Assembly (NCBI GenBank): GCA_963667035.1
Contig: OY762964.1
Span: 572,664-636,663, forward strand
Source of the DNA: Candidatus Cloacimonadales bacterium
GTDB lineage: Bacteria > Cloacimonadota > Cloacimonadia > Cloacimonadales > JAFGVF01
Direction of reading: 5' to 3'
DNA: 64,000 bases
The position numbers and the translations under genes were made by a program. Position 1 is the first letter of the stretch. Every line of letters starts with the position of its first letter. The notes beneath the pieces were generated by a model that had not been told where the DNA came from, did no database searches, and worked only from the letters and a program-made list of their open reading frames with translations. Below, piece after piece: positions 8,941-40,514 of the stretch.

Positions 8941-8942
8941 CC

Positions 8943-9128
8943 TTATTTTTCACTCTTTATCTCAATTACCTGCTTTCCTTTATAAAATCCGCATGCTTTA
9001 CAAACATTATGTGGTTTGAATGCTTCTCCACAATTTGGACATATACTGAAGGCAGGAGCTGAAATCTTATAGTGAGTACGCCTTTTATCTCTACGTGTCT
9101 TAGATGTTTTCCGTTTAGGTACTGGCAT
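8943..9128 (-). CDS. rpmF: 50S ribosomal protein L32
   Basis: [21 protein letters not shown] with a Cys-x2-Cys ... Cys-x2-Cys zinc ribbon. Confidence 0.85.
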
Positions 9129-9481
9129 GATGTCTCCTTATTTATATCTTACTTATCTATCTTACTCATTAAAGACAATTTCAGCACAAATTATTTTGAC
9201 CGTCCCATGTGTCAAGAACTTTAAATAAGTACTTCTCTCGAATACTATTAGAACTTTTCTGTCACTAATAGGACAATCCTATGACATTTAAGACAAAATA
9301 TTATGTAGGATATATATTCACTACTATGTTTCAACTATTTCTCTGTTAAATGAAACAAATTCATTATTGACGTCAAGAGTTTTTCCATTCAATTTCCATA
9401 GCTTTATCACTGAGCTCTATCATTCATAGTTTTTTACTATGCCTTTATTCTGCAATAAACAATAGATTTCTCTTATTACTA

Positions 9482-10387
9482 CTAGAGTTTTTTAAATCCT
9501 GTACCTAATGTCTCGTGAACATCACTTATCGTTACAAAGGCTTTAGTATCTATATTTTTAAGGATGCTTTTAACTTTAGGAATTTCTCTTCTATTGATTA
9601 CAGTATATACAATTTCTTTTTTGCTCTCACTAAATGAGCCCTTTCCATAGAATATAGTGCAACCTCGATGAAGTTCTGTCATTATTGATTTTCTTACGGG
9701 TGTAGATTTATCAGTAACAATCATTACTCCTTTAGAATAAGAAAAGCCTTCTAATACTAGATCACATATTTTTGAGCTAACAACTAATGAAAGCAAACCC
9801 CAAAAAAATAAATTTGGATTCTTAAAAATTGTCCCTATTACAAATATAATGAAAGTATCTATGATTAAATATGAGTTTCCTATAGTAAATCCAAAATACT
9901 TTCTCATCAGTAATGCAGGAATATCTGTTCCCCCAGTTGATCCGTTGAATTTTATAACCAAACCAAACCCAGCGCCGACTATAACAGAACCGGCCATTAT
10001 AGCCAGAAAAGGTTCATTAGAAAGAGACCATGCTCTATCATTGATTTTAAAAAGATAATCCCTTAGAAAAAATACCTTTATCATGTTTCTTGAGGAGAAA
10101 AAATCCGTAAAAAAAGTCAACGAAAACATTCCTACTATTGTTTTAATTCCAAATTGTTTACCAAAAGCAATCAACCCAACAATAAACAGGGGAATATTTA
10201 TCATTAACATACTTATCCCTGCTGGAAACTGAAATAAATAATAAAAGATTTGAGCTATACCACCAACTCCACCTGGTGATGATTTATAAGGTATAAGAAA
10301 CAGAGAAAAGCCGATTCCGCAAAGAATAGTTCCAATTATAATGCCAATTGCATCTTTAATAAAACCAAAGTTAATTTTCACAAGCAC
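9482..10387 (-). CDS. YitT-family (DUF161/DUF2179) membrane protein
   Basis: Multi-pass membrane N-terminus, the GSTGGTDI motif typical of the YitT family, and a soluble C-terminal domain. Confidence 0.55.
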   Translation of the reverse strand: MLVKINFGFIKDAIGIIIGTILCGIGFSLFLIPYKSSPGGVGGIAQIFYYLFQFPAGISMLMINIPLFIVGLIAFGKQFGIKTIVGMFSLTFFTDFFSSRNMIKVFFLRDYLFKINDRAWSLSNEPFLAIMAGSVIVGAGFGLVIKFNGSTGGTDIPALLMRKYFGFTIGNSYLIIDTFIIFVIGTIFKNPNLFFWGLLSLVVSSKICDLVLEGFSYSKGVMIVTDKSTPVRKSIMTELHRGCTIFYGKGSFSESKKEIVYTVINRREIPKVKSILKNIDTKAFVTISDVHETLGTGFKKL

Positions 10388-10474
10388 CTCTTGCTTTTTA
10401 AAAGTAAAATGTTTAATAGTAATAATAAACTAAGAATGTTGAAATATCTATTTGCTAACACTTGATTCAAAAAA

Positions 10475-10660
10475 TCAAAGTTTATCAATCAACATCTGTT
10501 TTTGAGCTTTAGCTTTTTTCTCAGAATCAAACTTATAGGATAATATTTTGTTATCTTTCGTTACTACATCAAAAACATAAAGCCATCCTGTGTGATAAAA
10601 GACTTCATATATCTCTGAGACATTGACAATTTTTCCTATATCTATGTTTTCAATCTTCAT
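10475..10660 (-). CDS. small hypothetical protein (61 aa), translationally coupled to the upstream transporter
   Basis: Its ATG overlaps the TGA of the EamA-like gene (ATGA overlap at 10657-10660). No recognisable motif. Confidence 0.35.
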   Translation of the reverse strand: MKIENIDIGKIVNVSEIYEVFYHTGWLYVFDVVTKDNKILSYKFDSEKKAKAQKQMLIDKL

Positions 10661-11577
10661 TGTTTATTCCTCACTGAAAGTCTTTTTTTTATCATAACTG
10701 TTTTTTTTACAATAGTCTCTATATTTATACCCATTATGACTAATGCGATTCCCAAGAATTGACCAATATATATAGTCTCATGAAACATAATAAAAGCCAG
10801 TATTGAAACTATTACAGGTTTTAGAAAAAAGAGTATAGCTCCGGTAGTAGTTGGAACACTCTTCAATCCTTCAAAATATGAAAGATAAGCTAAACCAGAG
10901 ACAAAAATCCCTAAGTAAACTATTGTAATTACATTAAACCATGTAATCTCAAATGTAACATCTACTTTCGAGATTAATGCTATCATACCTAAAACTATGC
11001 TACCTATTATAAATGAGATAGTATTGGTAACGACATTACCGTGTTTTTTTACATTCTTTTTTGAGAGTATAGTATATAGTCCAAATGAGAAAGAAGCTAC
11101 ACAACCGAATATAATCCCTAATAAAGGATTAAGAGCTTTACTTTCCTGGAAAGACTCATATCCAATAATTGTAATTACACCAATAATTCCAACTATGATT
11201 CCAATTATTTTAACAAATGATAAACTCTCTTTCAATATGTATTTAGCTAGTATTGCTACAAACACAGGATTTGCACTTATAAGAATTGCACTTAATGATG
11301 CCTCTCCATAGTAAACAGCTAATTGTAAAGATAGCATTGATATGACAATATTGATTATGCCAAGAAGAGATAAGGAGAACATATCTTTAAAACTGAGCGT
11401 TGCTTCCTTGTTTATTATTTTTTTTAAACAAAGAGGTAGCATTATGATACCTCCAAGCATAAATCTATAAATAGTAATTCCAATTGGAGAAATGCTATCT
11501 CCCAAAAGTTTGCTTGTTAACTCCAATGTAGAGAATAGGAACACAGCAACTAGAATAAATAAGTAACTCATTAACAA
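10657..11577 (-). CDS. EamA/DMT-family transporter
   Basis: About 10 predicted TM helices in two repeated halves, typical of the drug/metabolite transporter superfamily. Confidence 0.55.
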   Translation of the reverse strand: MLMSYLFILVAVFLFSTLELTSKLLGDSISPIGITIYRFMLGGIIMLPLCLKKIINKEATLSFKDMFSLSLLGIINIVISMLSLQLAVYYGEASLSAILISANPVFVAILAKYILKESLSFVKIIGIIVGIIGVITIIGYESFQESKALNPLLGIIFGCVASFSFGLYTILSKKNVKKHGNVVTNTISFIIGSIVLGMIALISKVDVTFEITWFNVITIVYLGIFVSGLAYLSYFEGLKSVPTTTGAILFFLKPVIVSILAFIMFHETIYIGQFLGIALVIMGINIETIVKKTVMIKKRLSVRNKQ

Positions 11578-13589
11578 TTCTCCAACTGATTTATAATCTT
11601 GTATATATCTGAAGGTAACTCAGCTATCATGCACCCTGCATTCTTGAGTATTTCTTTTTTATACTGTACTGTCGATTTCTCACTATTAATGATTGCACCT
11701 GCATGTCCCATTTTGGAACCTTTAGGAGCAGAATCTCCTGCAAAAAAAGCAATTAAAGGTTTTGTTTTGTTAATTGATTTTATCAGATTTGCTAATTTTT
11801 CTTCCTCCTCTCCACCACCTATCTCTCCTATATAGACTATATAATCACTCTCTTTAGAATTTAATAGGAATGTAACTGTATCAATCACAGAGGTTCCTGA
11901 TATTGGATCACCACCTAATCCGATAGCAGTTGAAACTCCTTTAGTATTATTACTGATCTCATTTGCAATTTCATAGAGTAGTGTTCCGCTTTTTGACATT
12001 ATTGCAACATTTCCCTTTTTAAGAATCTTACCAGGAATGATACCTAGATTCGCTTCATTTACTCGTATTATCCCAGGACAATTAGGTCCTATAATCCTAG
12101 CACCTTTTTCATACGCATAATGAACCATTTCCATAGTATCATGAATAGGCACATGTTCTGTAATTATAACTATCAAATTTACTCCAGCGTCAATTGCTTC
12201 AATAGTTGCGGATTTTACATGAGGAGCGGGAACAAACAATACAGTTGCATCAACATGAGTGTTTGCAGTAACTTCTTTTACTGAGTTATAAATTGTAACA
12301 CCATGTATTGTTTCCCCTCCACGACCAGGAGTAACACCAGCTACTATCTTAGTACCATATTCTAGCATTTTTTTTGCATGATATGAGCCATATTTCCCTG
12401 AAATGCCTTGCACAATTACTTTAGAATCTCTGGATACAAAGAATTGAGAATCATGCTTTTGCGATATTTCTACTGCCTTGCGGGCTGCTCTTTCCATACT
12501 ATTATAAGCAAAGATACCATTTTCTTTAAGCATTGAAATTGCTATATCAGAATTGTTTCCCATCATTCTTATAATCATCGGTAGTGAGTTTATATTCGTA
12601 GAGCGATACTCTATAATTGCTTCAGCAATCTTGTCACAAAATGTTATTCCTCCAAAAATATTTACGAAGATACAATTGATTTTACTATTAGAGTTTAACA
12701 GTTTAAGAGCGTTTAAAGTAATTTCTTTAGTTGCTCCACCACCTAAATCCAAGAAATTAGCAGGTGTACCGTTAAATTTTTTTATCATATCCATTGAAGC
12801 CATTACTATACCTGCTCCACATCCCATTATCCCAATACTTCCGTCTAGTTCAAGATAATGTGAACCGAAATGATTCGAACCATCAAAATACAATTGATTC
12901 ATTGAAAGATTCTCTAGTTCGGCAAAAAGTTCTTCATGTCTAAACTTTGCTGATTCATCTATATCTATAACACAATCAAGGCAAATTGGTGTATCTTCTT
13001 TATCAAATACAAATGGATTGATTTCTAAAAGAGTGGCATCGATAGATAAGAATACTTGCTTTATCAATACTGCAAACTCAATAAATTTGTTTAACTTTTT
13101 TTTATTGGGGAAGAAACAAAATGTGTTATCCATTAATTGTCTTTTAAACACTTCATTTTTTATACTTACTTGTAAAGTAATTATGCTTTCAGGATTATCT
13201 GATGCTACTTTTTCAATATCAACACCACCAAAAGGAGAGAAAATTGCAGTTAAGCTCTTCGAAGCTCTGTCAATTAACATACAAAAATAATACTCTTGCT
13301 CTATATTAATAGACTCTTCAACTAATATGCCTACAGATCTTTCACCTTTAAACTCTTGGTTTATAATCCAATTACACATTTCTTCAAACTTTGATGTATC
13401 ATCTAGTAATTGAACTAGATTTGCTTTACCTCTTCCTCCTGCTAGAACTTGACTCTTGAGTACTACTGGGAAACTAAAAGGGATTTTTGAATAATCAAAC
13501 AGCTCCCCTTCTTTAAAGAAGTGATTTCGAGGAATAGTTAAATTGTGCTCTTCTAGAATTTTTTTTGATTGGAATTCATGAATCTTCAT
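11571..13589 (-). CDS. succinyl-CoA synthetase-like fused beta-alpha subunits (acyl-CoA synthetase, NDP-forming)
   Basis: N-terminus MKIHEFQSKKILEEHNL matches the SucC ATP-grasp start (MNLHEYQAK...). The middle and C-terminus match SucD (VIVQGISGKYGSYH..., GPNCPGIIRVNEANLGIIPG, phosphohistidine loop MGHAGAII). Both parts lie in one 672-aa ORF. Confidence 0.7.
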   Translation of the reverse strand: MKIHEFQSKKILEEHNLTIPRNHFFKEGELFDYSKIPFSFPVVLKSQVLAGGRGKANLVQLLDDTSKFEEMCNWIINQEFKGERSVGILVEESINIEQEYYFCMLIDRASKSLTAIFSPFGGVDIEKVASDNPESIITLQVSIKNEVFKRQLMDNTFCFFPNKKKLNKFIEFAVLIKQVFLSIDATLLEINPFVFDKEDTPICLDCVIDIDESAKFRHEELFAELENLSMNQLYFDGSNHFGSHYLELDGSIGIMGCGAGIVMASMDMIKKFNGTPANFLDLGGGATKEITLNALKLLNSNSKINCIFVNIFGGITFCDKIAEAIIEYRSTNINSLPMIIRMMGNNSDIAISMLKENGIFAYNSMERAARKAVEISQKHDSQFFVSRDSKVIVQGISGKYGSYHAKKMLEYGTKIVAGVTPGRGGETIHGVTIYNSVKEVTANTHVDATVLFVPAPHVKSATIEAIDAGVNLIVIITEHVPIHDTMEMVHYAYEKGARIIGPNCPGIIRVNEANLGIIPGKILKKGNVAIMSKSGTLLYEIANEISNNTKGVSTAIGLGGDPISGTSVIDTVTFLLNSKESDYIVYIGEIGGGEEEEKLANLIKSINKTKPLIAFFAGDSAPKGSKMGHAGAIINSEKSTVQYKKEILKNAGCMIAELPSDIYKIINQLENC

Positions 13590-13614: not shown

Positions 13615-14467
13615 GGAGGGTTAGAGTAACCTATGTGAATAGTAATAGAGAAGTATTACCCCTTATCCACAAGCGTCATACACTTTCCCTCCGAAAGTAA
13701 TTCCGTACAGATTTAAATCTGTATGATACGGCATGTCTCCTGACTTGAAGTTTACCTCCGAGCTCCCTTCCCATCAGTTTAATGACAGTGGTATGAACTC
13801 TTTGTTCCTTCTTACAGTAGCGGGGGCTGTTCTCGATTTTCACGAGATTCCATCTTAGCTCTTCATTAGAGAACCAGTATCTTGTTTAATGATTATTTGC
13901 TTCAAAATGAGTCAAGAAAATCTTACTGCTTTCTTCAATGTTTGCTCCATTAGTACAGGTAAGTTCCCATATTTCATTAATATACATTTCTTTGTAATAT
14001 GTGCTCACATATTACCAGATACGCAAGGATCCTGCTCGCTATAAGACATGCCGGTAAAATGCTAGCGTACCCCGGTTTGTAGTGCAAGTGCCCTCACTTG
14101 CACATAGCTCGAAGAGCTATATTTTTTGCATACTTTGTCAGCACAGCAATTCAGGGGAGTCGCAGTACATCATACGAGTTTGCGAGTACAACGCAAAGCG
14201 ATTACACCATGTTCCGATTGGAGTCGAACTCCCACCGGTCGTTTGGACTTGAGCTATAGACTATTACCTGTAGAACATCCTTTTATATATATTAGCTCAC
14301 AAAATCCTCATTTTAGTCACAACATCCCCTTTTTTTTACATTTTGCATCTTTCATTTAGCATTTTCTCTTAATTTCTAATTCATATTCCTCTCTCTGCTC
14401 TAAGCAGTAACAATTGCTTTTAAATCAATTCTAACTTATTAATAAATTAGTAATTTCTTGATAATTA

Positions 14468-22105: not shown

Positions 22106-23493
22106 ACCCCAAACATAGACCCGGCGGAATAGCAGAAATGCTGGCTATTGCTCTTCCCATGGTTATTTCCATGGCATGCGACGGAGTAATGGTTTTTACC
22201 GATAGACTCTTTTTAGCGAGTCTAAGTCCGGTACATATGAATGCAGCAATGGGTGGTGGTGTTATGATTTCCACTTTTACATTGTTCTTCGTAGGCTTAA
22301 CCGGATATTCTACCGCATTAGTCGCTCAATATCTTGGAGCGGGATTGAAGAAAAAATCAGCGAATGTGACTTTTCAAGCCATTATCATCTCTTTGCTTTC
22401 TTTCCCCGTTTTTGTTCTGGTAAGACCCTTGGCAGGATTGCTCTTCAGTTTGATGAAGATTCCTCCTGAACAGCTTGTTTTACAGAATCAATATTTTAAT
22501 ATCCTGATTCTGGGGTCAGTATTTGCAATCCTTAGAAACAGCTTCAGCTGTTTCTTTTCAGGGATTGGTAAAACCAAATACGTTATGATTTCGGCAATTG
22601 GAGCCATGGTCGTTAATGTAATAGCAAATTATTGCCTGATATTTGGCAAATTTGGAGCACCTGCCTTAGGTATTAGAGGTGCAGCTATCGGTACAATCAT
22701 AGGTAGTATTTTTGGTATGATCCTATTGATGTTTGCATATTTCTCAAAGAATAATAGAGAAGAATACAATGTTATGGCATCCTCTAAGTTTAATATGGAT
22801 ATGATGAAGAAACTTCTTTATTACGGATCTCCTCAAGGTTTTGAAAGCTTATTGAATATGCTTGCCTTCTCAATTATGGTTTACATATTTTATGCTCAAG
22901 GTAATGTCGTTGCAACTGCAACAACCGTGATGTTTAACTGGGACTACGTCTCATTTATTCCGCTTATTGGAGTTGAAATTGGTGTAACAAGTCTGGTAGG
23001 GAGATACATGGGAGCTGGCGATCCTGATACAGCACATAAAGCTACAATGTCTGGGATAAAAACAGGTTTCCTGTATTCTGCGTTGTGTTTCCTTCTATTC
23101 TTCCTGATTCCTGAACCACTCGTGAGAATGTTTAAACCGAATGAAACTGTTGAGATTTTTGAACAAGCAGTACCAATAGCTGTTATGATGCTCAGAATTG
23201 CTACTCTATATATTTTAGCTGAATCAGTTATGATAAGCTTTGTAGGGGCTTTAAGAGGAGCAGGAGATACTTACTGGGCGATGCGTTCATCAGTGATTTT
23301 ACACTGGTTGTTTGTACCGATTATTTGGGTGTCTTTCAATGTTTTCCATTTCTCAGCAATCACTGGTTGGATTATCCTGGTATCATTTATACTTATATTC
23401 TGCCTTGTCTTCGCCTGGAGATACTATAAGGGAAAATGGCGAACCTTAAAAGTTATCGAAACTCCGGGAGTTGATTTTCCCGAATATTTATAA
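22102..23493 (+). CDS. MATE-family efflux transporter
   Basis: 12-TM protein with two repeated 6-TM halves, about 460 aa, typical of MATE/NorM. Its start overlaps the helicase stop. Confidence 0.65.
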   Translation: MNPKHRPGGIAEMLAIALPMVISMACDGVMVFTDRLFLASLSPVHMNAAMGGGVMISTFTLFFVGLTGYSTALVAQYLGAGLKKKSANVTFQAIIISLLSFPVFVLVRPLAGLLFSLMKIPPEQLVLQNQYFNILILGSVFAILRNSFSCFFSGIGKTKYVMISAIGAMVVNVIANYCLIFGKFGAPALGIRGAAIGTIIGSIFGMILLMFAYFSKNNREEYNVMASSKFNMDMMKKLLYYGSPQGFESLLNMLAFSIMVYIFYAQGNVVATATTVMFNWDYVSFIPLIGVEIGVTSLVGRYMGAGDPDTAHKATMSGIKTGFLYSALCFLLFFLIPEPLVRMFKPNETVEIFEQAVPIAVMMLRIATLYILAESVMISFVGALRGAGDTYWAMRSSVILHWLFVPIIWVSFNVFHFSAITGWIILVSFILIFCLVFAWRYYKGKWRTLKVIETPGVDFPEYL

Positions 23494-23499
23494 AGATTA

Positions 23500-23529
23500 A
23501 AAGTGACTCGGAATTGAGTCACTTTTTTT
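23500..23529 (+). terminator. rho-independent terminator
   Basis: AAAAGTGACTC-ggaatt-GAGTCACTTTTTTT perfect hairpin plus a U tract, immediately after the MATE gene. Confidence 0.8.
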
Positions 23530-23703
23530 ATGAATGGGCTATTGATGCATAAATAGAACTCTTCTCACAATAGAAACATATTCAAATCATTATTCATGCA
23601 AGTAAGATAACAAAGAATAATAGTTAAAAGTAAAAACTTTAATTGACTTAATTAGTAATCTTTCATATCTTTGATATTAATCAATGGAGGATAACTATTT
23701 ATT

Positions 23704-24954
23704 ATGTATTTACTACAAAAGATTACTGGAAACAAGTTTAACCGAATTAATTCAATTATTGATTCATATAATTATACTCAGAATAATTTCATCAATCTTA
23801 TTGCCTGTGTATGTTATATTTTTCCAGAAGTTATAGAAGCGATGAAATTCCCATTATCCACTTTGCCAACAGAAGGATTAATGAATAATAGATATTTCCC
23901 AACATATGATTATATGGAAAGAATTGAAGTATTATCACAAGAGCAAGCCTTGAAATTGTTTAAAATTAGTTCTGGTTATAAAGTAAACATACAACCACAT
24001 TCAGGAACTCAAGCTAACCATATTATTTACAATGCAATATTAAAGGATGGAGATAGGGTTATTAGCATGTCTCCTTTTGATGGCGGACATATTTCACACA
24101 CTAAATTAGCTGGAAGAAAATTAGAGTTACTTCATTTCTATTTGAATGACGACTACAAACTGGATTACAATCTGATTGAGAATATGATTATGGAGTTTAA
24201 ACCAACTCTGTTAATTGCAGGAGTTAGTTCTTATCCAAGAGAAATTGACTTCCAACTTCTATCACAGATATCACACAAGCATAATTGCTATATTCTTGCT
24301 GATATAAGTCATACTGCTATATTTGTTGCAGGAGAAGTACATAAAAACGTTTTCCCATATGTAGATTTTGCTACTTTCACTATGGAAAAAAACTTGAGAG
24401 GTCCTCATGGAGGAGTTATCATTTATAAAGAGAAATTTCACAAGGCAATATCATATTCAACATTCCCTATATCCCAAGGAGGTCCTATACAAAATATGCT
24501 TTTTGGTAAACTTGTTGCATTTGAATTACTAAATCAAACAAATGTTAAAGAATATGCTAATAGATTGGTTTCAAATGCCAGGAGTGTATCTAAAACATTA
24601 TTAGAGAGAGGTTGCGATGTTGTAACTTCAGGGACAGATAGTCACATAATCTTAGTTAATACTAAATCTCATGGACTTCTAGGTAATAAAGCTGAGAATA
24701 TCCTAGAAAAGAACAGAATTTTGGTAAATCGAAATCTGATTCCAAAAGATAAAGAGAAACCTTTAATTACTTCTGGGATTAGAATAGGGAGTACTACAAT
24801 TACTAATCTTAATTATGAGTTTGTAGACGTCATAAATTTATCCAATACTTTAGCTGATGTATTATTGAATAGAAAAACTGATGAACATAATGTAAGATAT
24901 CTATTGAACAAATACCATAGTAGTATCAATATCTCCAGTGAGGAGACAAAATAA
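23704..24954 (+). CDS. divergent serine hydroxymethyltransferase-fold PLP-dependent enzyme (SHMT/threonine-transaldolase-like paralog)
   Basis: Colinear with SHMT: NLIACVCY (vs LIASENYT), VNIQPHSGTQAN (vs ANVQPHSGSQAN), GGHISHT (vs GGHLTHG), DISHTA (vs DMAHVAG), and TMEKNLRGPHGG (vs TTHKTLRGPRGG, PLP-Lys retained). Several SHMT-invariant residues are substituted. Confidence 0.7.
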   Translation: MYLLQKITGNKFNRINSIIDSYNYTQNNFINLIACVCYIFPEVIEAMKFPLSTLPTEGLMNNRYFPTYDYMERIEVLSQEQALKLFKISSGYKVNIQPHSGTQANHIIYNAILKDGDRVISMSPFDGGHISHTKLAGRKLELLHFYLNDDYKLDYNLIENMIMEFKPTLLIAGVSSYPREIDFQLLSQISHKHNCYILADISHTAIFVAGEVHKNVFPYVDFATFTMEKNLRGPHGGVIIYKEKFHKAISYSTFPISQGGPIQNMLFGKLVAFELLNQTNVKEYANRLVSNARSVSKTLLERGCDVVTSGTDSHIILVNTKSHGLLGNKAENILEKNRILVNRNLIPKDKEKPLITSGIRIGSTTITNLNYEFVDVINLSNTLADVLLNRKTDEHNVRYLLNKYHSSINISSEETK

Positions 24955-27277
24955 ATAGAAATTGTATTAATCCATCATTTATAGGTAATTTAATAACTAG
25001 CTCATTACCTGTTTCTTTTCTTGCATTAAGTCTTGTTAGGAAATAGCTAGAGATTTGAATTGTTTTGTTAGTTACTAAACAACTTTCAATTGATACTAGA
25101 TTGTAACCTATACAAAACTGCATCCATGGATCTTGAATTTTAGTAACACATTCATACATTTTTTCTATTTCACTCTTAGCCATTAGAATATCCAATTCTT
25201 TTAAGGCAATATTAATAATAATCTGATTATTCGACAGCATTAATTGATCTAATATTAGTGACTTAGGATAAGAATCAATCGCTCTTTCGATGTATTCTTT
25301 TGCGATATCATATTTTCTATTTATCGTATATAAAGCAGCCATATTACACAATGGTTCAAAAATTTCATTAGAGTTTATTTGATTAAACAACTCTATGGAA
25401 TTTGATAAATTTCTCTCAGCTTCAGGATAACTGTGGTTCCATAAATAAACTAATCCTAAATTGTTTAGCGCAGTAGCTCTACCAAACAGAAAATTGTTTT
25501 GTCTGAAATAATTGTAAACACTTTTCAGATTTATAATAGCTTTCTCATAACTAAAATAATGTGCTGAGTTTCTTAAAATTACGAAATATGACTCATCATT
25601 GGTTGGTGGAAGATTATAGATTATTTCTTTTGCTTCTTTATCGTAGCAAAGGTGTTGGTAAATGTTTAACCTATACAAGATTGTTTCCAATTTGTTGTTA
25701 TCTAATTGAGTGCATACTTTTAACGCTTCTTTAAAGTGATAGGATTGAGTTAGGTACTTAACCTTATATAGCAAATAATCTGAAGTTTTTGCATAAGTTG
25801 TATCTTCAATAATTCTAATTGCTTCAATTCCTAAATAAATCTCAGAAGTTTTTTGAAATGAGTCAAGTAACTGAGTGACCGAGATATCTGGCAAAATGGT
25901 TATTATTTCTTTATACGCTTTATAAATAAGGATGATGTATTGATACATATTATTATTATATTGAATGTCGATTAGTCGTATAACGTAATCAAGTTTGGTC
26001 TTATATTGATTTATTGAAAAAATACCAACAAAGCAGTGGAGTATATAAGAATAATCATTAGGAGCTATGTTAGTATTAAACAGCTCCTCCATTGCAATCA
26101 AGATATCATCTCTAATCTGGAGAAACTCTTCATCAGTTAAACCTTTCTTTGTAGAAGTAATAATCTTCTCGTGAGCTGGTTTAAGAAGTTGTCCATTAGA
26201 ACTATTTAGTACTATGTATCCAATCTTTACCAAATCTCTAATGCTATCCTCAATAACATCATTTTCGTTTCCATTCAGAATAGACTTAAGTAACTCTATA
26301 ATGTATTTCTTTTTCATTCCTGCAGGAAACATTGATGAGATTGTTACCAAATATTTTTTTATATAAGGAAAATAGCATATTGTTTCTGTGATATCATAAA
26401 TACTTTTTCTTGTAGTTGGCTCTTTATAAGCATTTAAGAACAATTCCATTTCTTTTAAGTTACCTAATGTTTTTTCATAACACCTATTAGCAACGAACAT
26501 AGCTTCTTCATGATTGCAGTGTATAACTTTTTTTACTAATTCTATGATCTCATCAATGTTAAATTGAGAAAGGGATATGAGTAAACTACTTTTAGTAAAA
26601 GTAGAAGCAAGATTAAAATTATCAATATCTAAAATTGTTCTGTTAATAAATATAAAATTTATCTCTTTTTTTAATCGCGAAATATGAGACTCAAAAAGAG
26701 TTTTAGTATATTTAGGTAGAAATTGATAGTTATCTATGGCAATATAGGTTTTAGTTTTATTTGCTATATAATCTAAGTATTTATATAAGGTAATCATTAT
26801 ATCTGGTGTAGGATCATGAGAATTCTTTTTAAATAAATTTCTCGGGAAAAGCTCTTTTAAAGGTTTTCCAAATGAAGGTATTAATTCTAAAGTTGATGAG
26901 ATAGTTTTAACCAGTTTATTTATAGCAGACTTCTTTAATCCTGAGGATTTTAAAAAGGCAGGGAATGTACATCCTTTTAAAACATTTAGTGGATAGTTAA
27001 ATTCAAACGAATGCTCATTCCAAGCACAATAGATTAAATATTCAGCAAAAAGAGTAATAGTAAAATCATCATTACTCAAATCTATGTAAATCATAGTAAC
27101 ATCTTTTTGAATTGTATATATTGAATGCATTAACTCCTTTACTAGAAAAGTTTTTCCTGTACCAGAATTACCTTCTACGATAAGGAGTTTAGGTTGTTTC
27201 TTTTCTATATTCTTGAAAAAAGACATAGCAGAATCAATTAAGCATTGTCTCACAACGAATGGAAATCTAGAACCCAT
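24926..27277 (-). CDS. STAND/AAA+-type P-loop NTPase with a C-terminal TPR-like helical repeat domain
   Basis: Walker A EGNSGTGKTFLVKEL at residues about 33-47 and Walker B TYIAIDNYQF, followed by about 450 aa of Y/N/L-rich helical repeats. No HTH or N-terminal effector domain visible. It overlaps the SHMT-like gene 3' end convergently by 29 nt. Confidence 0.6.
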   Translation of the reverse strand: MGSRFPFVVRQCLIDSAMSFFKNIEKKQPKLLIVEGNSGTGKTFLVKELMHSIYTIQKDVTMIYIDLSNDDFTITLFAEYLIYCAWNEHSFEFNYPLNVLKGCTFPAFLKSSGLKKSAINKLVKTISSTLELIPSFGKPLKELFPRNLFKKNSHDPTPDIMITLYKYLDYIANKTKTYIAIDNYQFLPKYTKTLFESHISRLKKEINFIFINRTILDIDNFNLASTFTKSSLLISLSQFNIDEIIELVKKVIHCNHEEAMFVANRCYEKTLGNLKEMELFLNAYKEPTTRKSIYDITETICYFPYIKKYLVTISSMFPAGMKKKYIIELLKSILNGNENDVIEDSIRDLVKIGYIVLNSSNGQLLKPAHEKIITSTKKGLTDEEFLQIRDDILIAMEELFNTNIAPNDYSYILHCFVGIFSINQYKTKLDYVIRLIDIQYNNNMYQYIILIYKAYKEIITILPDISVTQLLDSFQKTSEIYLGIEAIRIIEDTTYAKTSDYLLYKVKYLTQSYHFKEALKVCTQLDNNKLETILYRLNIYQHLCYDKEAKEIIYNLPPTNDESYFVILRNSAHYFSYEKAIINLKSVYNYFRQNNFLFGRATALNNLGLVYLWNHSYPEAERNLSNSIELFNQINSNEIFEPLCNMAALYTINRKYDIAKEYIERAIDSYPKSLILDQLMLSNNQIIINIALKELDILMAKSEIEKMYECVTKIQDPWMQFCIGYNLVSIESCLVTNKTIQISSYFLTRLNARKETGNELVIKLPINDGLIQFLFILSPHWRY

Positions 27278-27293
27278 AATAAATAGTTATCAT

Positions 27294-28256
27294 TTATTCA
27301 TTCAACACCTCCTTACTCATTGAAAATTTCCGTCTTGGATGTTTTGAGTTTAGGATTTTCTTTTGGCTCTTTCTATTTACATGAGTATATATTTGGGTTG
27401 TATTGATTGAGCTATGTCCCAGAAAGTGTTGAATATACTTTATATCTACACCCTCTTCCAATAGAAGAGTAGCGAAGGTATGTCGGAAGGTATGAGGAGT
27501 GATTTTTTTATCTATTTTCGCTAATTTAACATATCTGTTTATCATAAATCGTACTGATTGAGCTGAAATGTTATTGTCTAATCTGTTAAGAAAAAAGTAG
27601 GTTCTATTAGGGTGATTTTTAGCAATTGCTATATCAAAGTTCCTAAGAGATTGAATAATTTCTTTACTACAGATATGTATGATTCTTTCTTTTGCTCCTT
27701 TCCCATAAACAATAATATGATTACTTTTTAGATCAATTTGATTGTGCTTGAGTGAACAAAGCTCCGAAATTCTTATTCCTGTTCCAAACAATAACTCTAG
27801 AATCGCAATATCCCTACAACATGAAGTGTAAGTATAGTGACTGGAGTTTATCATAGAGTTCTTAAAATTGTATGCAGAAGTAAGTATTCTTTTTACTTCG
27901 CTTAATGTTAGCACATTAGGTAGAGTTTTAGGAACCTTAAGTTTGATGCGTAGTTTCCTAAAAGGGTTTACAGCTATAATATCTTCAAATTCAAGATAGT
28001 TTAAGAATGATTTTAAAGACGCTATTTTCCTTTTAGCTGTTTTAACTTTGTATGAAGACACTAAAAATTCCACATACTGTCTGATTAATGCCTTGTCTAA
28101 ATTAGATATATCCGATTGAGAATCACCTGTCTTTTCATTAATAAAGTTCATGAATTGAGTAAAATCCGATTTATATGCCGATAAGGTTTTCTTACTTAGG
28201 TTCTTCTCATAAGTGCAATGAAAAGTAAACTGCTCCAAACATTCTTTAACTGTCAT
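27294..28256 (-). CDS. tyrosine site-specific recombinase (XerC/XerD/integrase family)
   Basis: C-terminal catalytic motifs HTFRHTFAT…LGHSSINTTQIYTHV (R…HxxR…Y) and an N-terminal SAM-like core-binding domain. Lies 17 nt upstream of, and co-oriented with, the STAND NTPase. Confidence 0.85.
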   Translation of the reverse strand: MTVKECLEQFTFHCTYEKNLSKKTLSAYKSDFTQFMNFINEKTGDSQSDISNLDKALIRQYVEFLVSSYKVKTAKRKIASLKSFLNYLEFEDIIAVNPFRKLRIKLKVPKTLPNVLTLSEVKRILTSAYNFKNSMINSSHYTYTSCCRDIAILELLFGTGIRISELCSLKHNQIDLKSNHIIVYGKGAKERIIHICSKEIIQSLRNFDIAIAKNHPNRTYFFLNRLDNNISAQSVRFMINRYVKLAKIDKKITPHTFRHTFATLLLEEGVDIKYIQHFLGHSSINTTQIYTHVNRKSQKKILNSKHPRRKFSMSKEVLNE

Positions 28257-28461
28257 TTAAACTCCCCAATTTAAATGTAGAACAACTTAGGAATATAGAA
28301 TATCATGTCTATAGTGAATTTGGAAAAGAGTAATCAATAGTTCCATGACTAACTATCAACTTTCATAATCTAATCAGTATGGTATCAGTTATGTTTCTCA
28401 ATAATCTGATTGACTAAACACGAAGGTCAGAAATATTCTCTGAGAATAAGGAGAGTATATT

Positions 28462-31353
28462 ATGAGACTAAAGATAGTTTTTTCGATATTGTTACTGGTA
28501 TTGCTGTCCATATTGATAGCCAGACCTCATTTTGAGGAACCTACACCTACATATGAAACGGAACAATACTTTAAAAGTTATATTAGAGCTGATTCATTGC
28601 ATGGTTTTGATGTTGAGAAATATGAGATTTATCTATCCATTGATGATCAGGCACAATATATAAATGGAAATGTAATTGCAACGGTAACAGCAGAAGAGAA
28701 TCTTCAGTCGATAGAATGGGATCTTTGTGGGCTAACTGCAACAGCAGTTGAAGTTAATGGAATAATGCAGAATAATTTTTCACAAAATGATACTCATGTA
28801 ATAATTCCATTAGCAGGAATATCCAATGGTGATCAGTTCTCAACAACAGTTTACTATTCAGGTAATCCATCTTTGAGCCCTTCTCCTTATGGATGCGGGA
28901 TGTTCTTCAGAACCGGCTCTGTCTTCACTATTTCCGACCCGGATGCGTCACGATATTGGTGGCCATGCTATGATCATCCATGGGATAAAGCTTTAGTTGA
29001 TTTGCATGTAACCGTTAGAGACGATTGGGTCGCAGCATGTAACGGATTAAGAGATTCTATAGAGGATAATGGGGACGGTACGAGAACCCATCACTGGTTA
29101 GGCTCAAACCCTATGACTACATATCTTGCTTGTATAACAGCCGGTAATTATCAGGAACTTCCTTTGCAATACTACAACGATATACCAATTCAAGATTTTG
29201 TTTTACCTAATCAGGTAGCAAATGCAACTGAAGATTTATCTAGATTGCCTGATATGATGAGTGCTTTCTCCCAGATGTTTGGAGAGTATCCCTTTGAAAA
29301 ATACGGACAGACAACTGTAAGTATGGGAGTATATGGTGCTATGGAACATCAAACTATGACTACTCTCAATAGTTACATGATAACAGGAACACATCTTTAT
29401 GATACTACTTATGCTCATGAACTTGCTCATCAATGGTTTGGTAATTGCCTAAGCGTGCTTACTTTTAAAGATATATGGTTATCAGAGGGATTTGCTACAT
29501 ACTCAGAAGCTCTTTGGACTGAATATGATCAGGGATACGAAGCAATGTGCGAGTACTTTCAAGATAACATATCGGGTTATTATCTATCCTATGCAAATAG
29601 TCATGGACCTCAGACAACCTACGATCCAGCCTTCAATGCTATATTTACTCCGGTATCTTACGAGAAACCCGGCTCTGTTCTTCATATGCTAAGAGCAAGA
29701 GTGGGGAATGAGATGTTTTTCGATATTCTCCAATCCTGGTTTCAGGAGCACCATAATGGTAATGTGATTACTTCTGAGTTTCAAGCAAAATGCGAAGAGT
29801 TAACGGGAGAGGACTTTAGTCAGTTCTTTGACCAATGGATATATGGTTCCGGAATCCCGGAATTAGAATATAGTGTCTTTTACAACTATAATCTAGCCAT
29901 ACCTAGATATAAAGTATATGCTAAATCCATATCAAATACTGATACGGAATTTGTTCTTGATATTCCTTTCCATTACAATAGTCCTACTTTAGCAGATAGT
30001 TCGTTAGTACAAGCCGGACCGGAAGTAACAGAATCCATAGTACTTCTTAACTATATTCCTACCGGCTACAGCATAGACCCTAATAATTGGATGCTCTTGA
30101 GAGGAATGACAGAGAAAAGGGTAGAAATTGTTGATGCTTACGCCGGAGTCAGCAGTGCAAGGGTTTCTTGGTCTCCTTACTGGACAGATGTTCAACCTGT
30201 TGGTTACTATATCTATAGAGCTACATTTGACGGTCCGTTTATACTCCAAACAATAGAACCTATCACAGGAACCGAATGGGTAGACAGTGATTTATCTCCC
30301 GAGACAGAGTATTCTTACTATGTGGTTGCCGTTGATAATCAAGGTTTTGAATCAATGCCGTCTGAGACACGTATTGTTAGGACAATAGATATGCCAATGG
30401 ATCAGGGAATGCTTGTAGTTGATGAAACTAGAGATTTAGGCGGTACAATACTTTCTCCTAATGATCTGCAGGTAGACGATTTTTATAGAACAATATTCGA
30501 AGATATGATTTATACAGAATATGATTATGCTTCTCAAGGTACTATTACTTCTCAGATACTTGGACAGTATTCTACAGTTTTTTGGCATAATGATGATTTT
30601 ACCGAGTTGCTTATTAATGATAATCTAAATGCTTTAGGTAGCTACATTCTTGAAGGAGGAAATCTAATTCTCTCAGGGTTTAAGATTGCCGGACAAATTG
30701 ACCAGGATTTTCTTACTCAATACTTCCCTAACTTAACACCCATTTATGCAAATAATTCAGTGTTTGAATATGCATATAGTAATGAATATCCCAGCTTGAT
30801 AATAGATCAATCAAAGCTCCCTGCAAATTGGAATCAGAACCTCAGAATGACATATAGCTTCCCTAATTATTCCGAAAATGCTATCTATAATGCCGATTAT
30901 TCCGATACAGAGCCAACAGATGGTAATGGAGTTATTATAGCTACTGACACCGGAGGTTCTCTAACGATTAGCGGTATACCTCTATATATGTTTGAGATCG
31001 ACGGTGTGAGGAGTTTTCTTAATCAGTATATTGCTTCTATTGACGAATCAGTGAGTAATAATGAACAACAGCAGGAATTAGGGGTTATTGCTATTAATGC
31101 GTATCCGAATCCATTTAATCCCGAACTGAATATAAAAATAGAAGGTTTGAGTGATGAAAGGGTTGAAGTTTCTATATACAATGTCAAGGGACAGAAAGTA
31201 ATGGCTTTATTCAATGATGTTGTTAAAGGAAGCAAGGAGCTTGTTTGGTCAGGTAGAGATAGCAATAATCATAAAATGGGGTCAGGCATATATTTTGTGA
31301 AAGTCAAAACAGATAGTGTAGCAACTACTAGAAAGATAATATTGCTTAAATAG
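28462..31353 (+). CDS. secreted M1-family (aminopeptidase N-like) zinc metallopeptidase with a T9SS C-terminal sorting domain
   Basis: Signal peptide, gluzincin motif YAHELAHQWFGN … LSEGFATY (HEXXH-X18-E), Ig/FN3-like middle region, and a C-terminal INAYPNPFNPELNIKIE…KIILLK Por-secretion CTD. Confidence 0.75.
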   Translation: MRLKIVFSILLLVLLSILIARPHFEEPTPTYETEQYFKSYIRADSLHGFDVEKYEIYLSIDDQAQYINGNVIATVTAEENLQSIEWDLCGLTATAVEVNGIMQNNFSQNDTHVIIPLAGISNGDQFSTTVYYSGNPSLSPSPYGCGMFFRTGSVFTISDPDASRYWWPCYDHPWDKALVDLHVTVRDDWVAACNGLRDSIEDNGDGTRTHHWLGSNPMTTYLACITAGNYQELPLQYYNDIPIQDFVLPNQVANATEDLSRLPDMMSAFSQMFGEYPFEKYGQTTVSMGVYGAMEHQTMTTLNSYMITGTHLYDTTYAHELAHQWFGNCLSVLTFKDIWLSEGFATYSEALWTEYDQGYEAMCEYFQDNISGYYLSYANSHGPQTTYDPAFNAIFTPVSYEKPGSVLHMLRARVGNEMFFDILQSWFQEHHNGNVITSEFQAKCEELTGEDFSQFFDQWIYGSGIPELEYSVFYNYNLAIPRYKVYAKSISNTDTEFVLDIPFHYNSPTLADSSLVQAGPEVTESIVLLNYIPTGYSIDPNNWMLLRGMTEKRVEIVDAYAGVSSARVSWSPYWTDVQPVGYYIYRATFDGPFILQTIEPITGTEWVDSDLSPETEYSYYVVAVDNQGFESMPSETRIVRTIDMPMDQGMLVVDETRDLGGTILSPNDLQVDDFYRTIFEDMIYTEYDYASQGTITSQILGQYSTVFWHNDDFTELLINDNLNALGSYILEGGNLILSGFKIAGQIDQDFLTQYFPNLTPIYANNSVFEYAYSNEYPSLIIDQSKLPANWNQNLRMTYSFPNYSENAIYNADYSDTEPTDGNGVIIATDTGGSLTISGIPLYMFEIDGVRSFLNQYIASIDESVSNNEQQQELGVIAINAYPNPFNPELNIKIEGLSDERVEVSIYNVKGQKVMALFNDVVKGSKELVWSGRDSNNHKMGSGIYFVKVKTDSVATTRKIILLK

Positions 31354-38396: not shown

Positions 38397-40514
38397 ATGA
38401 AAAAGATTGTTTTGTTCTTAATCAGTATCTATCTTATTATACCTGTATTTTCTATCTATCATAAGATTGGAGAATATGAGCACCCAAGCAATTTCTCCTA
38501 TCTAGCTGTTTCCAATGATAGAGGGTATCTGTCATGCGGTAATGATAGTCTTGTAGTATTAGATGTATCCATTCCTGAGAATCCTCAATTTCGATCAGTA
38601 TATGATACCGGAATAATCATACATGAATTATGCTTGATTGATACTTTATTGTTCATTGGATCGCATGGTTCCGGAGTTCAGATTCTTAATGTGTCTGATT
38701 CCCAGAACCCTGTATTACTCAGTGAATATGTAACATCCGCATATATACGATCAATTAATGTTGTCGGAAATATCGCTTATTTATGTACAATTATGAATGG
38801 TATTGAGATAGTCGATGTTTCAGATGTTTACAATCCACAGCTAATTAGTAATTATAATAATCTTATTGATGCATATTCGATAAAAATAGTAGGGGATATT
38901 GCTTATGTTGCTAACGGTATTCATGGATTAACAGTACTGGATATTTCAGAACCACAAGTTCCGCAACTTGTTAGAACTTATCAGACAGATCAATCCTTAC
39001 ACTATGTAGATGTTGAAGGTGATTTGATGTTTCTCGGTATGCTTTCTATCGGACTGGAAGTATTGAATATTACAGATATAAACAATATTCAACAATTGGA
39101 TAGATATCAGATATCACAGATAATCTTTCTTGATGTTCAGGGAGGGTTATGTCATATTGGAGACAGGGAAAAGGGGTTGTTGGTAATTGATTATTCAACA
39201 CCGGATAATCTAGAGTTAGGTGGTATTTATAACAGTGCAAGAGATAAGAAATCAATTTGTATCTATGATTATTGCGCATACTTGGTAGATGATAGATCTG
39301 ACTTAGATATTATAGATATATCAGAACCGGATATTAATATTCAGAGAAGCAGTTTCTCCGAGTCTGTATCGGTTAATATAGTTAAATCAATAAATAACGC
39401 CACATTCGTTGGAGATGATATCGGAATAAAAGTTTATGATCTCGCTGATATCAATAATCCTATACTACTAAACTCAGTTGAAGTGCCTGAAGGTGTAAGA
39501 GACTTTTTTATTGATGGTAACATTATTTATTTGGCATCACCTCGGAGTGTCTATACATTGAATATTTCTAATTTACAGAATTTGCAGTTAGGCGGTTTTT
39601 ATCATAATGGTGGTTACGGTGAGATAATATCAATAATCTATTCGGATAGTTTGATTTATTATTCTACGACTCATAACGGAATTCGAGTTCTTGATGCAAC
39701 TAATCCACTATCATTGCAATCAATCTGCTCTCATTTCAACAATACCCTTATAAATGATATGCAGATTTCAGGAGATATAGTGAAAGCTGCATGCGGTTGG
39801 ACAGGGTTAGTTACTTTCGATGTATCTAATCCACCTATACCTAATCAGGTTTGTCAGTTAGATATTACCGATTATGCTAAGAAGATTGTTCAAAATTCTC
39901 AAGTAGTTTACATCGCAACAGGCAAGAACGGTTTAAAAGTCATTGATACTTCAAACATGTCAGATTGTTATTGTTGTGAAACTATATTGCCAAGAGAAAC
40001 AAGTAGTATTGATGATTGTTTTATCTATAACAACTGCCTGATTATTTGTGATAGTAACTGGAATGAAATCAGTATATATGATATCAGTAATCCACTACAA
40101 CCACGATTAGTTGATTCTTTTCAATGGAATTTACATGTAAATAATATAGATGTCGAGGATGATATACTGTTCTTAGCCAATGGTTCGAATGGTGTTAGTA
40201 CTCTTGAATCGGTTTTTCTAACAAACAATCACGAGGAGATTCAAGAGATACAGAAGTTAATATCATTAAGTAATTTTCCCAATCCCTTCAATCCTGAAAC
40301 AACAATATCATTTCAGTTAACCAAAAGTTCTTATGTAACTCTAAAAGTATACAATATCAAAGGTGAGTTAATAGAAACACTGATTTCAGGAAATGTCCTC
40401 GCCGGTAGCCATAGCTATGAATGGAAACCTGAGAATGTAGCAAGTGGAGTATACTTCTGTAGATTATCTGATGGTAAGAAGACAGTCACTCAAAAGCTAA
40501 TATTGTTAAAATAG
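38397..40514 (+). CDS. secreted LVIVD-repeat beta-propeller protein with a T9SS C-terminal sorting domain
   Basis: Signal peptide. Repeated LVIVD-type motifs (LVVLDVS, VQILNVS, IEIVDVS, LTVLDIS, LEVLNIT, LLVIDYS). C-terminal NFPNPFNPETTISFQL…KLILLK Por-secretion CTD. Confidence 0.7.
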   Translation: MKKIVLFLISIYLIIPVFSIYHKIGEYEHPSNFSYLAVSNDRGYLSCGNDSLVVLDVSIPENPQFRSVYDTGIIIHELCLIDTLLFIGSHGSGVQILNVSDSQNPVLLSEYVTSAYIRSINVVGNIAYLCTIMNGIEIVDVSDVYNPQLISNYNNLIDAYSIKIVGDIAYVANGIHGLTVLDISEPQVPQLVRTYQTDQSLHYVDVEGDLMFLGMLSIGLEVLNITDINNIQQLDRYQISQIIFLDVQGGLCHIGDREKGLLVIDYSTPDNLELGGIYNSARDKKSICIYDYCAYLVDDRSDLDIIDISEPDINIQRSSFSESVSVNIVKSINNATFVGDDIGIKVYDLADINNPILLNSVEVPEGVRDFFIDGNIIYLASPRSVYTLNISNLQNLQLGGFYHNGGYGEIISIIYSDSLIYYSTTHNGIRVLDATNPLSLQSICSHFNNTLINDMQISGDIVKAACGWTGLVTFDVSNPPIPNQVCQLDITDYAKKIVQNSQVVYIATGKNGLKVIDTSNMSDCYCCETILPRETSSIDDCFIYNNCLIICDSNWNEISIYDISNPLQPRLVDSFQWNLHVNNIDVEDDILFLANGSNGVSTLESVFLTNNHEEIQEIQKLISLSNFPNPFNPETTISFQLTKSSYVTLKVYNIKGELIETLISGNVLAGSHSYEWKPENVASGVYFCRLSDGKKTVTQKLILLK

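Follow-up and report, generated by a model that had tools for sequence, protein, structure and literature searches.

We analyzed a 64,000-nt stretch of the genome of a Candidatus Cloacimonadales bacterium (contig OY762964.1; hereafter the window) and found that three genes in an AT-rich island form one conserved, horizontally acquired accessory module. The genes encode a serine hydroxymethyltransferase (SHMT)-like pyridoxal 5'-phosphate (PLP) enzyme, a STAND NTPase with a TPR tail and a Xer-family tyrosine recombinase (Table 1). The first two are convergent, and a pair of inverted repeats brackets them exactly. Considering the module as a whole, we are confident that it is a site-specific inversion switch driven by the tyrosine recombinase. 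That it is an inversion system is the part of this reading that we hold most firmly, inversion having been seen in relatives and being predicted for the window copy. In the proposed mechanism, the recombinase would act on GATAA-N7-TTAT(G/C) cores in the two repeats and flip the 3.6-kb two-gene segment. Since the sites sit at or before both start codons, inversion would alter no protein and would instead swap the upstream contexts of the two genes.

The inverted repeats had been overlooked in an earlier note on this region, which was made from the sequence alone. The two arms, IR-L and IR-R, were 28 nt long and 86% complementary, and they were the top inverted repeat of the region 23300-28500. 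Each arm contained a 17-nt perfect core, which reads GATAA-CTATTTA-TTATG in IR-L and is given in full as GATAACTATTTATTATG. This 17-mer occurred in exactly two copies in the window, in inverted orientation, even when two mismatches were allowed, while none of 100 shuffles reached two copies. We predict it to be the core site of the recombinase, in which an asymmetric spacer of 7 nt separates 5-nt inverted half-sites. The outer part of IR-R reached into the recombinase gene and covered its last codons and stop codon. The window had a single further GATAA-N7-TTATC motif, GATAATATTTTGTTATC at 10539-10555, between a YitT-family gene and an EamA transporter gene, in a second low-GC patch (9-12 kb, 29-32% GC). 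This motif was at chance level, with at least one occurrence in 17 of 100 shuffles, and it could be a third recombinase site or a dif-like site.

Table 1. Features of the island and its borders, with positions in the window.
Feature	Position	Strand	Size or remark
Strong bidirectional intrinsic-terminator hairpin after the MATE gene	23499-23526		stem of 11 bp flanked by T-runs
Flank on the far side, not part of the invertible segment	23527-23678	+	candidate inward-facing promoter
IR-L, left inverted-repeat arm	23679-23706	+	17-nt perfect core 23690-23706, ends in the SHMT-like ATG
SHMT-like PLP enzyme gene	23704-24954	+	416 aa
3'-3' overlap of SHMT-like and NTPase genes	24926-24954		29 nt
STAND/TPR NTPase gene	24926-27277	-	783 aa
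IR-R, right inverted-repeat arm	27275-27302	-	17-nt perfect core 27275-27291, ends in the NTPase ATG
Gap from recombinase stop to NTPase ATG	27278-27293		16 nt
Xer-family tyrosine recombinase gene	27294-28256	-	320 aa
Region between the recombinase gene and the divergent M1 peptidase gene	28257-28461	-	right island border

The same gene pair recurred well outside this organism. A survey with one genome per species returned 29 loci, and the convergent, overlapping NTPase and SHMT-like genes were present in all 29 of them, with a 3'-3' overlap of 8-29 nt kept throughout. The hosts included a Prolixibacteraceae metagenome-assembled genome (MAG), Thermoanaerobaculia, Lachnospiraceae, Eubacterium, Roseburia, many mitis-group streptococci, Gemella, Anaeroplasmataceae and other Bacilli. 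The pair was also found in every metagenomic context that we opened, including those reached by searches starting from SHMT-like matches. Among SHMT-like homologues on long contigs, the nearest (64% identical) came from the Prolixibacteraceae MAG, where a tyrosine recombinase gene lies directly upstream and a convergent NTPase of 749 aa, 55% identical to that of the window, has the same 29-nt overlap. The earlier note had given the three genes and the 29-nt overlap correctly, although the gap between the recombinase and NTPase genes, which it stated as 17 nt, proved to be one nucleotide shorter. It had also asked if homologues of the SHMT-like gene co-occur with STAND NTPases or recombinases elsewhere, and had allowed that this gene might be hitchhiking cargo. 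The pairing held at every locus, with the recombinase adjacent in most, and the cargo idea was abandoned. Because of this invariable pairing, we regard the SHMT-like gene as an obligate partner of the NTPase gene.

Inverted repeats were found around nearly all of the related cassettes examined, with exact lengths of 17-31 nt and, in some, up to 66-120 nt. They shared a common architecture of 5-nt inverted half-sites and an asymmetric 7-nt spacer, in the form GATAA-N7-TTATC or AATAA-N7-TTATT, and by analogy this 5-7-5 layout is typical of a tyrosine-recombinase core site. The core read GATAA-TAAATTG-TTATC in Streptococcus, GATAA-TTGTAGA-TTATC in L005 and GATAA-TAGATGA-TTATC in L006, while Anaeroplasmataceae and Bacilli MAGs carried AATAA-N7-TTATT. 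In L035, which belongs to a lineage whose NTPase is fused to a PRTase-CE domain, the core was identical to that of the window. Two high-GC lineages had differing repeats of 25-27 nt. At L002, the Prolixibacteraceae relative (9959-9999), the ATG of the NTPase-side repeat is followed immediately by a stop codon (ATGGATTAA), and the NTPase in fact starts at the following ATG, 8 nt further on. The start codon is thus not always the ATG that lies in the repeat.

Comparison of closely related loci revealed the segment in both orientations. Both flanks of L014 (S. rubneri) and L017 (S. oralis subsp. dentisani) were colinear over several kilobases, while the 3.57-kb interior (9983-13558) was inverted at 98.8% identity, with breakpoints inside the 30-nt repeat. 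Between L008 and L010, single-nucleotide polymorphisms just outside the core followed the flank and those just inside followed the gene, which places the crossover within GATAATAAATTGTTATCG. Two gut metagenome loci, L032 and L033, encode an identical SHMT-like protein and differed by inversion of a 4539-bp interior that was 99.96% identical, between 66-nt repeats and flanks that were 96% identical. Opposite orientations between the same two flanks were thus seen in three lineages (oral streptococci, gut metagenome lineage). A fourth lineage had one shared flank on opposite cassette ends: the cassettes of L043 and L047 were 100% identical, and their common CAT/PNP flank adjoins the NTPase end of one cassette and the SHMT end of the other. 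The 66-nt repeats of L032 (5832-5897 and 10305-10370) contain the tandem core-like motifs GATAATTTTTAGTTATC and GATAATTCTAAATTATT, which may be alternative crossover sites, and the 25-nt repeat of its sister L031 retains the second motif (GATAATTCTAAATTATT) alone.

A different explanation of the repeats is that they are a shared 5' leader or operator and that the flips arose by rare accidental homologous recombination. A common translation-initiation region is indeed part of the repeat, since the streptococcal repeat includes the ribosome-binding site (GGTAGGAGA) and the window repeat includes both ATGs. However, the repeats of 17-31 nt in many lineages are too short for efficient RecA recombination, and the 5-7-5 architecture is kept while the sequence drifts between phyla. 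The adjacency of a Xer-like recombinase in most loci and the recurrence of inversions between cassettes that are 99-100% identical also speak against it, and we consider this explanation very unlikely.

Assembly breaks at the repeats formed a further pattern. Both ends of contigs L006 (from an isolate of Eubacterium album), L019, L023 and L042, among which isolates as well as MAGs were represented, lie in the repeat; L015 starts in it and L028 stops in it. For two gut SHMT-like proteins, the longest contig fell in the 2-5 kb class in 141 of 223 index blocks for one and 141 of 237 for the other. This is the pattern expected from mixed orientation in the sequenced population, and it is suggestive of such a mixture rather than proof of it.

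The recombinase had Pfam Phage_integrase and SAM-like N-terminal domains and retained every catalytic residue (R, K, HxxR, H and Y), and it was closest to XerD, XerA and XerC. Its NCBIfam scores were below the cut-offs for both chromosomal enzymes (XerC, 247.3 against 335.15; XerD, 244.3 against 329.6), and the sites that look cognate to it are an inverted pair around the cassette rather than those of a dimer resolvase. The recombinase gene is outside the invertible segment and adjoins the cassette in most loci. It adjoins the NTPase start in nine loci (the window, L003, L010, L014, L027, L031, L032, L034 and L039) and the SHMT start in about 25. Its orientation was fixed within a lineage, and its divergence between phyla paralleled that of the cassette. 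Since the sites are inverted around the gene pair and relatives have the pair flipped in place, the recombinase is best read as a dedicated invertase.

The SHMT-like protein matched the Pfam SHMT family strongly (1.6e-85; 287.6 bits against a threshold of 27) and was about 36-40% identical to solved SHMTs, but its score against the NCBIfam SHMT model PRK00011 was 323.7 bits, below the cut-off of 335. Numbered as in E. coli GlyA, it retains the Schiff-base lysine K229 together with D200, H203, H126, S175, E57, N347 and R363. Relative to GlyA it has the changes Y55P, Y65F, G66P, L121P, H228E and R235H, so that Y55, Y65, H228 and R235 are replaced beside an intact K229. In an alignment of 21 cassette sequences the changes were family-wide (Y55P, Y65F, G66P, L121P, H228D/E, R235Q/H and S35C), with other replacements at these sites in a few high-GC members. 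The cassette enzyme thus has the fold, the PLP lysine and the core residues of canonical GlyA, and differs from it in these substitutions, in being accessory and in being always paired with the NTPase. Streptococci are known to carry a canonical glyA elsewhere, and the RefSeq name of the protein is only 'aminotransferase class I/II-fold PLP-dependent enzyme'. These sequence features mark the protein as a distinct, cassette-specific subfamily and not canonical GlyA. With its PLP lysine and core residues retained and its active-site changes shared across the family, the protein is probably still active as a PLP enzyme, but at an active site that has been remodelled.

These results bear on the possibility that the locus holds housekeeping genes, that is, glyA, the chromosomal XerC/XerD and an unrelated TPR protein. 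The strong Pfam SHMT match and the fact that the best NCBIfam matches of the recombinase are XerC and XerD would fit such an assignment. Against it, all three NCBIfam scores (SHMT, XerC and XerD) were below their cut-offs, Y55, Y65, H228 and R235 were lost across the family under a generic RefSeq name, and the trio is accessory, patchy across phyla and compositionally foreign. The assignment is therefore already contradicted by scores, substitutions, distribution and composition, and we give it almost no credence. The divergence of the SHMT-like gene from GlyA that the earlier note had pointed out was thus borne out, and the identity that it had named as damaging to its view, a recombinase that is simply the chromosomal XerC/XerD, did not hold for this protein, which is linked to the cassette across phyla.

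By composition the island is foreign. At 29.0%, its GC content was the lowest of any 4.9-kb window in the 64 kb, against 35.4 +/- 1.3% in the others (z = -4.95), and its tetranucleotide L1 distance was 0.265 against 0.146 +/- 0.017 (maximum 0.193) elsewhere in the window. The hairpin after the MATE gene is the left border of the low-GC island and would halt leftward transcripts from the cassette. Both the terminator and the AT-rich composition had been described in the earlier note and were recovered here. The flanking genes were ordinary chromosomal ones, namely UvrB, a DEAD-box helicase and a MATE transporter on the left and, on the right, an M1 peptidase with a type IX secretion system (T9SS) sorting domain and an SPFH protein.

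The earlier note had read the recombinase and the STAND protein together as an integrated mobile or defence-type module. With the recombinase as the integrase of such an island, the NTPase and SHMT-like genes would be its cargo and the inverted repeats would be incidental. In keeping with a mobile island, the locus is low in GC and atypical in tetranucleotide usage, the recombinase accompanies the gene pair, chromosomal contexts differ across phyla with one copy on a megaplasmid, and streptococcal cassettes are more alike (99.5%) than their flanks (92-96%), which suggests recent exchange. However, no att-like direct repeats pairing 23.5 kb with 28.4 kb were found at the island ends, where the earlier note had proposed to look for them, and there were no tRNA genes in the window. 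The only significant repeats were inverted, and they bracket the gene pair and not the recombinase gene; inverted sites yield inversion rather than excision, and flipped states occurred in four lineages. IMG/VR and GenBank phages contained no cassette relatives, so a phage or prophage origin is unsupported. Because neither att-like direct repeats nor a tRNA target were found, we downgraded the integrase-island reading and now regard it as improbable. It leaves the repeats unexplained, and it may additionally hold as the route of acquisition. The part of the earlier claim that stands is that the trio is a horizontally acquired accessory unit, while the role of the recombinase as island integrase is not supported.

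Two side observations concern the mobility of the cassette. In Streptococcus, the L014 cassette was 98.8-99.5% identical to those of L008, L011 and L017, while the flanks were 84-96% identical, which suggests that the cassette was recently transferred between species, for example by transformation, or is under unusually strong constraint. The only plasmid-borne copy found was L039, on the 188-kb plasmid of S. salivarius ICDC2 (7031-11523), where it adjoins pezAT toxin-antitoxin genes and transposase genes of IS110 and other types. The RefSeq names of its three genes are no more specific than TPR protein, class I/II-fold PLP enzyme and tyrosine recombinase.

Under the proposed inversion switch, the two orientations would differ in what drives each gene. 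In the sequenced orientation the recombinase operon would have the NTPase gene in second place, with the SHMT-like gene facing the far flank; after inversion the SHMT-like gene would follow the recombinase gene, as it does in the Prolixibacteraceae relative. The outcome would be two heritable states with opposite ratios of NTPase to PLP enzyme. We put the chances of this promoter-swap logic at about even. In the Bacteroidota-type arrangement, the recombinase gene is co-oriented with, and 9-19 nt from, the gene that it faces (NTPase in the window; SHMT-like in L001 and L035-L038), and the facing gene should be co-transcribed with it. In streptococci the recombinase gene is divergent from the cassette. 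The promoter of the recombinase operon is presumed to lie in the region between the recombinase and M1 peptidase genes. No terminator was found between the convergent genes in the two loci that were scanned, and the gene behind the stronger promoter should for this reason dominate and send antisense transcription through its partner.

Our promoter readings were based on -10 boxes identified by hand beside the repeats. The far flank of the window carries TTGACT-17-TATCTT at 23643-23671 and TATCTTTG at 23666-23673, the latter of which fits the Bacteroidetes -7 motif TAnnTTTG, and we infer from these a possible far-flank promoter. In streptococci, the ribosome-binding site is shared through the repeat, and on both flanks a -10-like box directly adjoins the core. 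On the far side this box is the extended -10 TATGGTATACT, which is kept even in the S. salivarius megaplasmid copy, in which homology otherwise ends about 15 nt outside the repeat.

The NTPase has a Walker A motif (GNSGTGKT, residues 36-43), a Walker B motif (IDNYQF, around residue 182), helical and winged-helix modules and a C-terminal TPR sensor arm, which together are the features of a STAND NTPase, and it is without an N-terminal effector domain. Pfam returned TPR_12/TPR_1, with TPR_12 covering residues 600-671, and weak AAA_16 and nSTAND P-loop matches. In the family alignment GxSGTGKT and IDNYQF were invariant or nearly so, and a C-terminal S-x-x-W-R-Y was invariant. The AlphaFold2 model (mean pLDDT 83) matched the STAND-TPR crystal structure 6mfv (E 1e-13), and further structural matches were to Orc/Cdc6, SAMD9, MalT, Apaf-1, CED-4 and plant NRC NLRs. 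Pfam, alignment and model thus agreed with the earlier description of a Walker A/B protein with a TPR tail and no DNA-binding or effector domain. The family had about 112 representatives at E <= 1e-30 among 1.84 billion proteins, mostly full length (760-820 aa), beyond which matches fell off to generic TPR proteins. Most members were without an N-terminal effector; one lineage is fused to PRTase-CE (924-1074 aa) and a distant relative carries TIR. The Lachnospiraceae-type cassette has an extra gene upstream of the NTPase gene, and its 193-aa product had no Pfam match and no similarity to PRTase-CE; in L031 and L034 this third gene is split into open reading frames (ORFs) of 89 aa and 112 aa. 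In the streptococcal loci L024 and L029 the NTPase frame is interrupted (region 10001-12294) and was matched in pieces, while the SHMT-like and recombinase genes are intact, which suggests that in some strains the sensor gene is the first to decay.

For the function of the pair, we propose that the STAND NTPase would serve as a TPR-based sensor or switch and the SHMT-like enzyme as its obligate partner. The partner could be the effector, or it could resemble MalY, a fold-type I PLP enzyme that binds the STAND ATPase MalT directly and restrains it. A phase-variable conflict or defence module is, in our judgment, the most likely payload, at roughly even odds. The neighbourhoods of the cassette are typical of defence islands. 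Streptococcal neighbours included an OLD-TOPRIM ATPase with a UvrD helicase (Gabija-like) and a Schlafen/AlbA_2 protein, the gut lineage of L031 and L034 carried a KwaB/KwaA (Kiwa) pair at 10370-11911, between the cassette repeat and the recombinase gene, the Prolixibacteraceae MAG had HEPN/MNT genes nearby, and the plasmid-borne copy had pezAT beside it. PADLOC-DB v2 gave no match for the SHMT-like protein or the recombinase. The defence-type character suggested by the earlier note is thus plausible in view of fusions and neighbours, while PADLOC offered the NTPase a P-loop match and nothing else.

The same switch could instead carry a non-immune payload, a regulatory or metabolic pair that toggles a one-carbon or amino-acid reaction in the manner of MalT and MalY. 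MalT was among the structural matches of the NTPase, and the structure entry 8bob deals with how the maltose system is negatively regulated; retention of the PLP lysine, D200, H126, E57, N347 and R363 suggests that the enzyme is probably catalytically alive; and PADLOC had no defence match. This alternative is at odds with an NTPase that has no DNA-binding output domain, with homologues fused to PRTase-CE and a distant relative fused to TIR, which are typical conflict effectors, and with the recurrence of defence-island neighbourhoods in three lineages. NTPase pseudogenes (L024 and L029) are likewise typical of costly defence genes. We think a non-immune payload rather unlikely. Tentatively, the cassette could represent a phase-variable immune class, in which the invertase swaps strong and weak promoters between the STAND ATPase and its PLP partner and thereby sets armed and disarmed abortive-infection states. 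The PLP enzyme might then bind the STAND protein as MalY does MalT, or act on the folate or amino-acid pool.

Several observations weigh against the inversion switch and its defence payload as we describe them. Opposite orientations were seen in relatives, and activity of the window copy is deduced from its intact repeats and recombinase; no second assembly of the window organism was found to show the other orientation. The NTPase-side junction 25-mer, and then the NTPase protein, had no match in JGI metagenomes. Clonal switching is suggested, and not proven, by contig ends at short repeats. L025, with a 19-nt repeat, has no recombinase gene within about 4 kb and no inversion was observed there, and L043-L048 (the P0094 lineage) have none within 5 kb, though L043 and L047 are inverted relative to each other. 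Adjacency of the recombinase is thus not obligatory, since these loci have repeats without a nearby recombinase gene, which implies that their recombinase acts in trans or has been lost. With respect to expression, the sites predicted by sigma-70 promoter scans of the window and of a streptococcal locus were no more frequent than in shuffles of this AT-rich DNA, and the promoter effects are inferred for that reason. Because both streptococcal flanks carry inward-facing -10-like boxes, the streptococcal genes may be transcribed in both states, and the switch there may be a change of ratio rather than ON/OFF. Mutually exclusive expression would also be paradoxical if the two proteins must act together. 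Finally, the only PADLOC-DB v2 match of the NTPase was a 50-residue P-loop match to mad8 (E 1.3e-5), no phage or IMG/VR link was found, and the case for a defence role is made by domain fusions and neighbourhood.

Programmed inversions are known to flip promoters or to shuffle gene parts that set specificity. As a tyrosine-recombinase inversion switch the cassette is of a known type, and its architecture and cargo are new. The closest design is that of the Mu G (Gin), P1 C (Cin) and e14 P (Pin) segments, in which a multi-kilobase segment between short inverted repeats holds convergent alternative genes, one gene at a time is joined to fixed upstream signals and the recombinase gene is just outside. 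Those segments, however, use serine invertases with a Fis-bound enhancer and exchange homologous tail-fibre variants behind a constant N-terminal exon, while the cassette uses a Xer-like tyrosine recombinase and has unrelated genes with no exchange of protein parts. The fimS element (FimB/FimE), the invertible promoters of Bacteroides and the flagellar and cwpV switches of C. difficile have an adjacent tyrosine recombinase, short inverted repeats and heritable, reversible states in common with the cassette, but they flip a promoter of about 150-350 bp where the cassette flips whole genes (3.6-4.5 kb) between fixed promoters. The hsdS shufflons (S. pneumoniae ivr, PsrA/CreX) likewise involve tyrosine-recombinase inversion in a defence locus, in Streptococcus, with subpopulations as the result. 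They recombine inside coding sequence and shuffle target-recognition domains, whereas the coding sequences of the cassette stay intact and it is not a restriction-modification system; the R64 shufflon also alters coding sequence, unlike the cassette.

Among Xer systems, the recombinase is nearest to XerD, XerA and XerC, and the inner half-sites ATAA and TTAT around a short centre resemble those of dif. Unlike XerC/XerD and its single dif, the cassette has two inverted sites about 3.6 kb apart with a 7-nt spacer, and its recombinase gene is linked to it across phyla. The NTPase resembles Avs/AVAST and bNACHT proteins in its P-loop NOD module with a TPR sensor arm behind it and in having relatives with N-terminal PRTase-CE or TIR effectors, and differs from them in having no PADLOC match, in mostly having no fused effector and in being part of an invertible unit. 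MalT and MalY are a precedent for a STAND protein under a fold-type I PLP enzyme; compared with this pair and with STAND antiphage proteins, the partner in the cassette is SHMT-fold and its gene is convergent with a 3' overlap. No description of the cassette was found in PADLOC, RefSeq annotation, the full-text literature that was searched, surveys of invertons and of gene-altering inversions or a 2026 defence-prediction paper.

Two further features of the window are recorded here. Por_Secre_tail (T9SS) sorting domains end the M1 peptidase (28462-31353, +) and an LVIVD-repeat protein (38397-40514, +); taken with a GC content near 35%, they suggest a host from Bacteroidota or the broader FCB group. 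A full-length cobalamin riboswitch (107.6 bits; 13713-13894, -) was found upstream of the ORF at 11571-13589 (-), which encodes a 672-aa fusion of ATP-grasp_2, CoA_binding and Ligase_CoA domains that resembles succinyl-CoA ligase or ATP-citrate lyase, a gene class that is unusual under B12 control.

The flipping of two complete, unrelated genes between fixed contexts is a different design principle for bacterial bet-hedging. Because the segment is 3.6-4.5 kb long and its inversion changes no coding sequence, standard inverton searches probably miss it, and inversion would explain assembly breaks that leave orphan contigs of this size. The pairing of a STAND/NLR-like ATPase with a remodelled SHMT-fold enzyme is absent from PADLOC-DB v2, and the cassette could reveal new effector chemistry or a second PLP enzyme that controls a STAND protein. 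Since its hosts include the tractable commensals S. mitis, S. oralis and S. salivarius as well as abundant gut Firmicutes, the hypothesis is directly testable. If the phase-variable immune class is real, it would amount to population-level bet-hedging in oral streptococci, gut Firmicutes and Bacteroidota.

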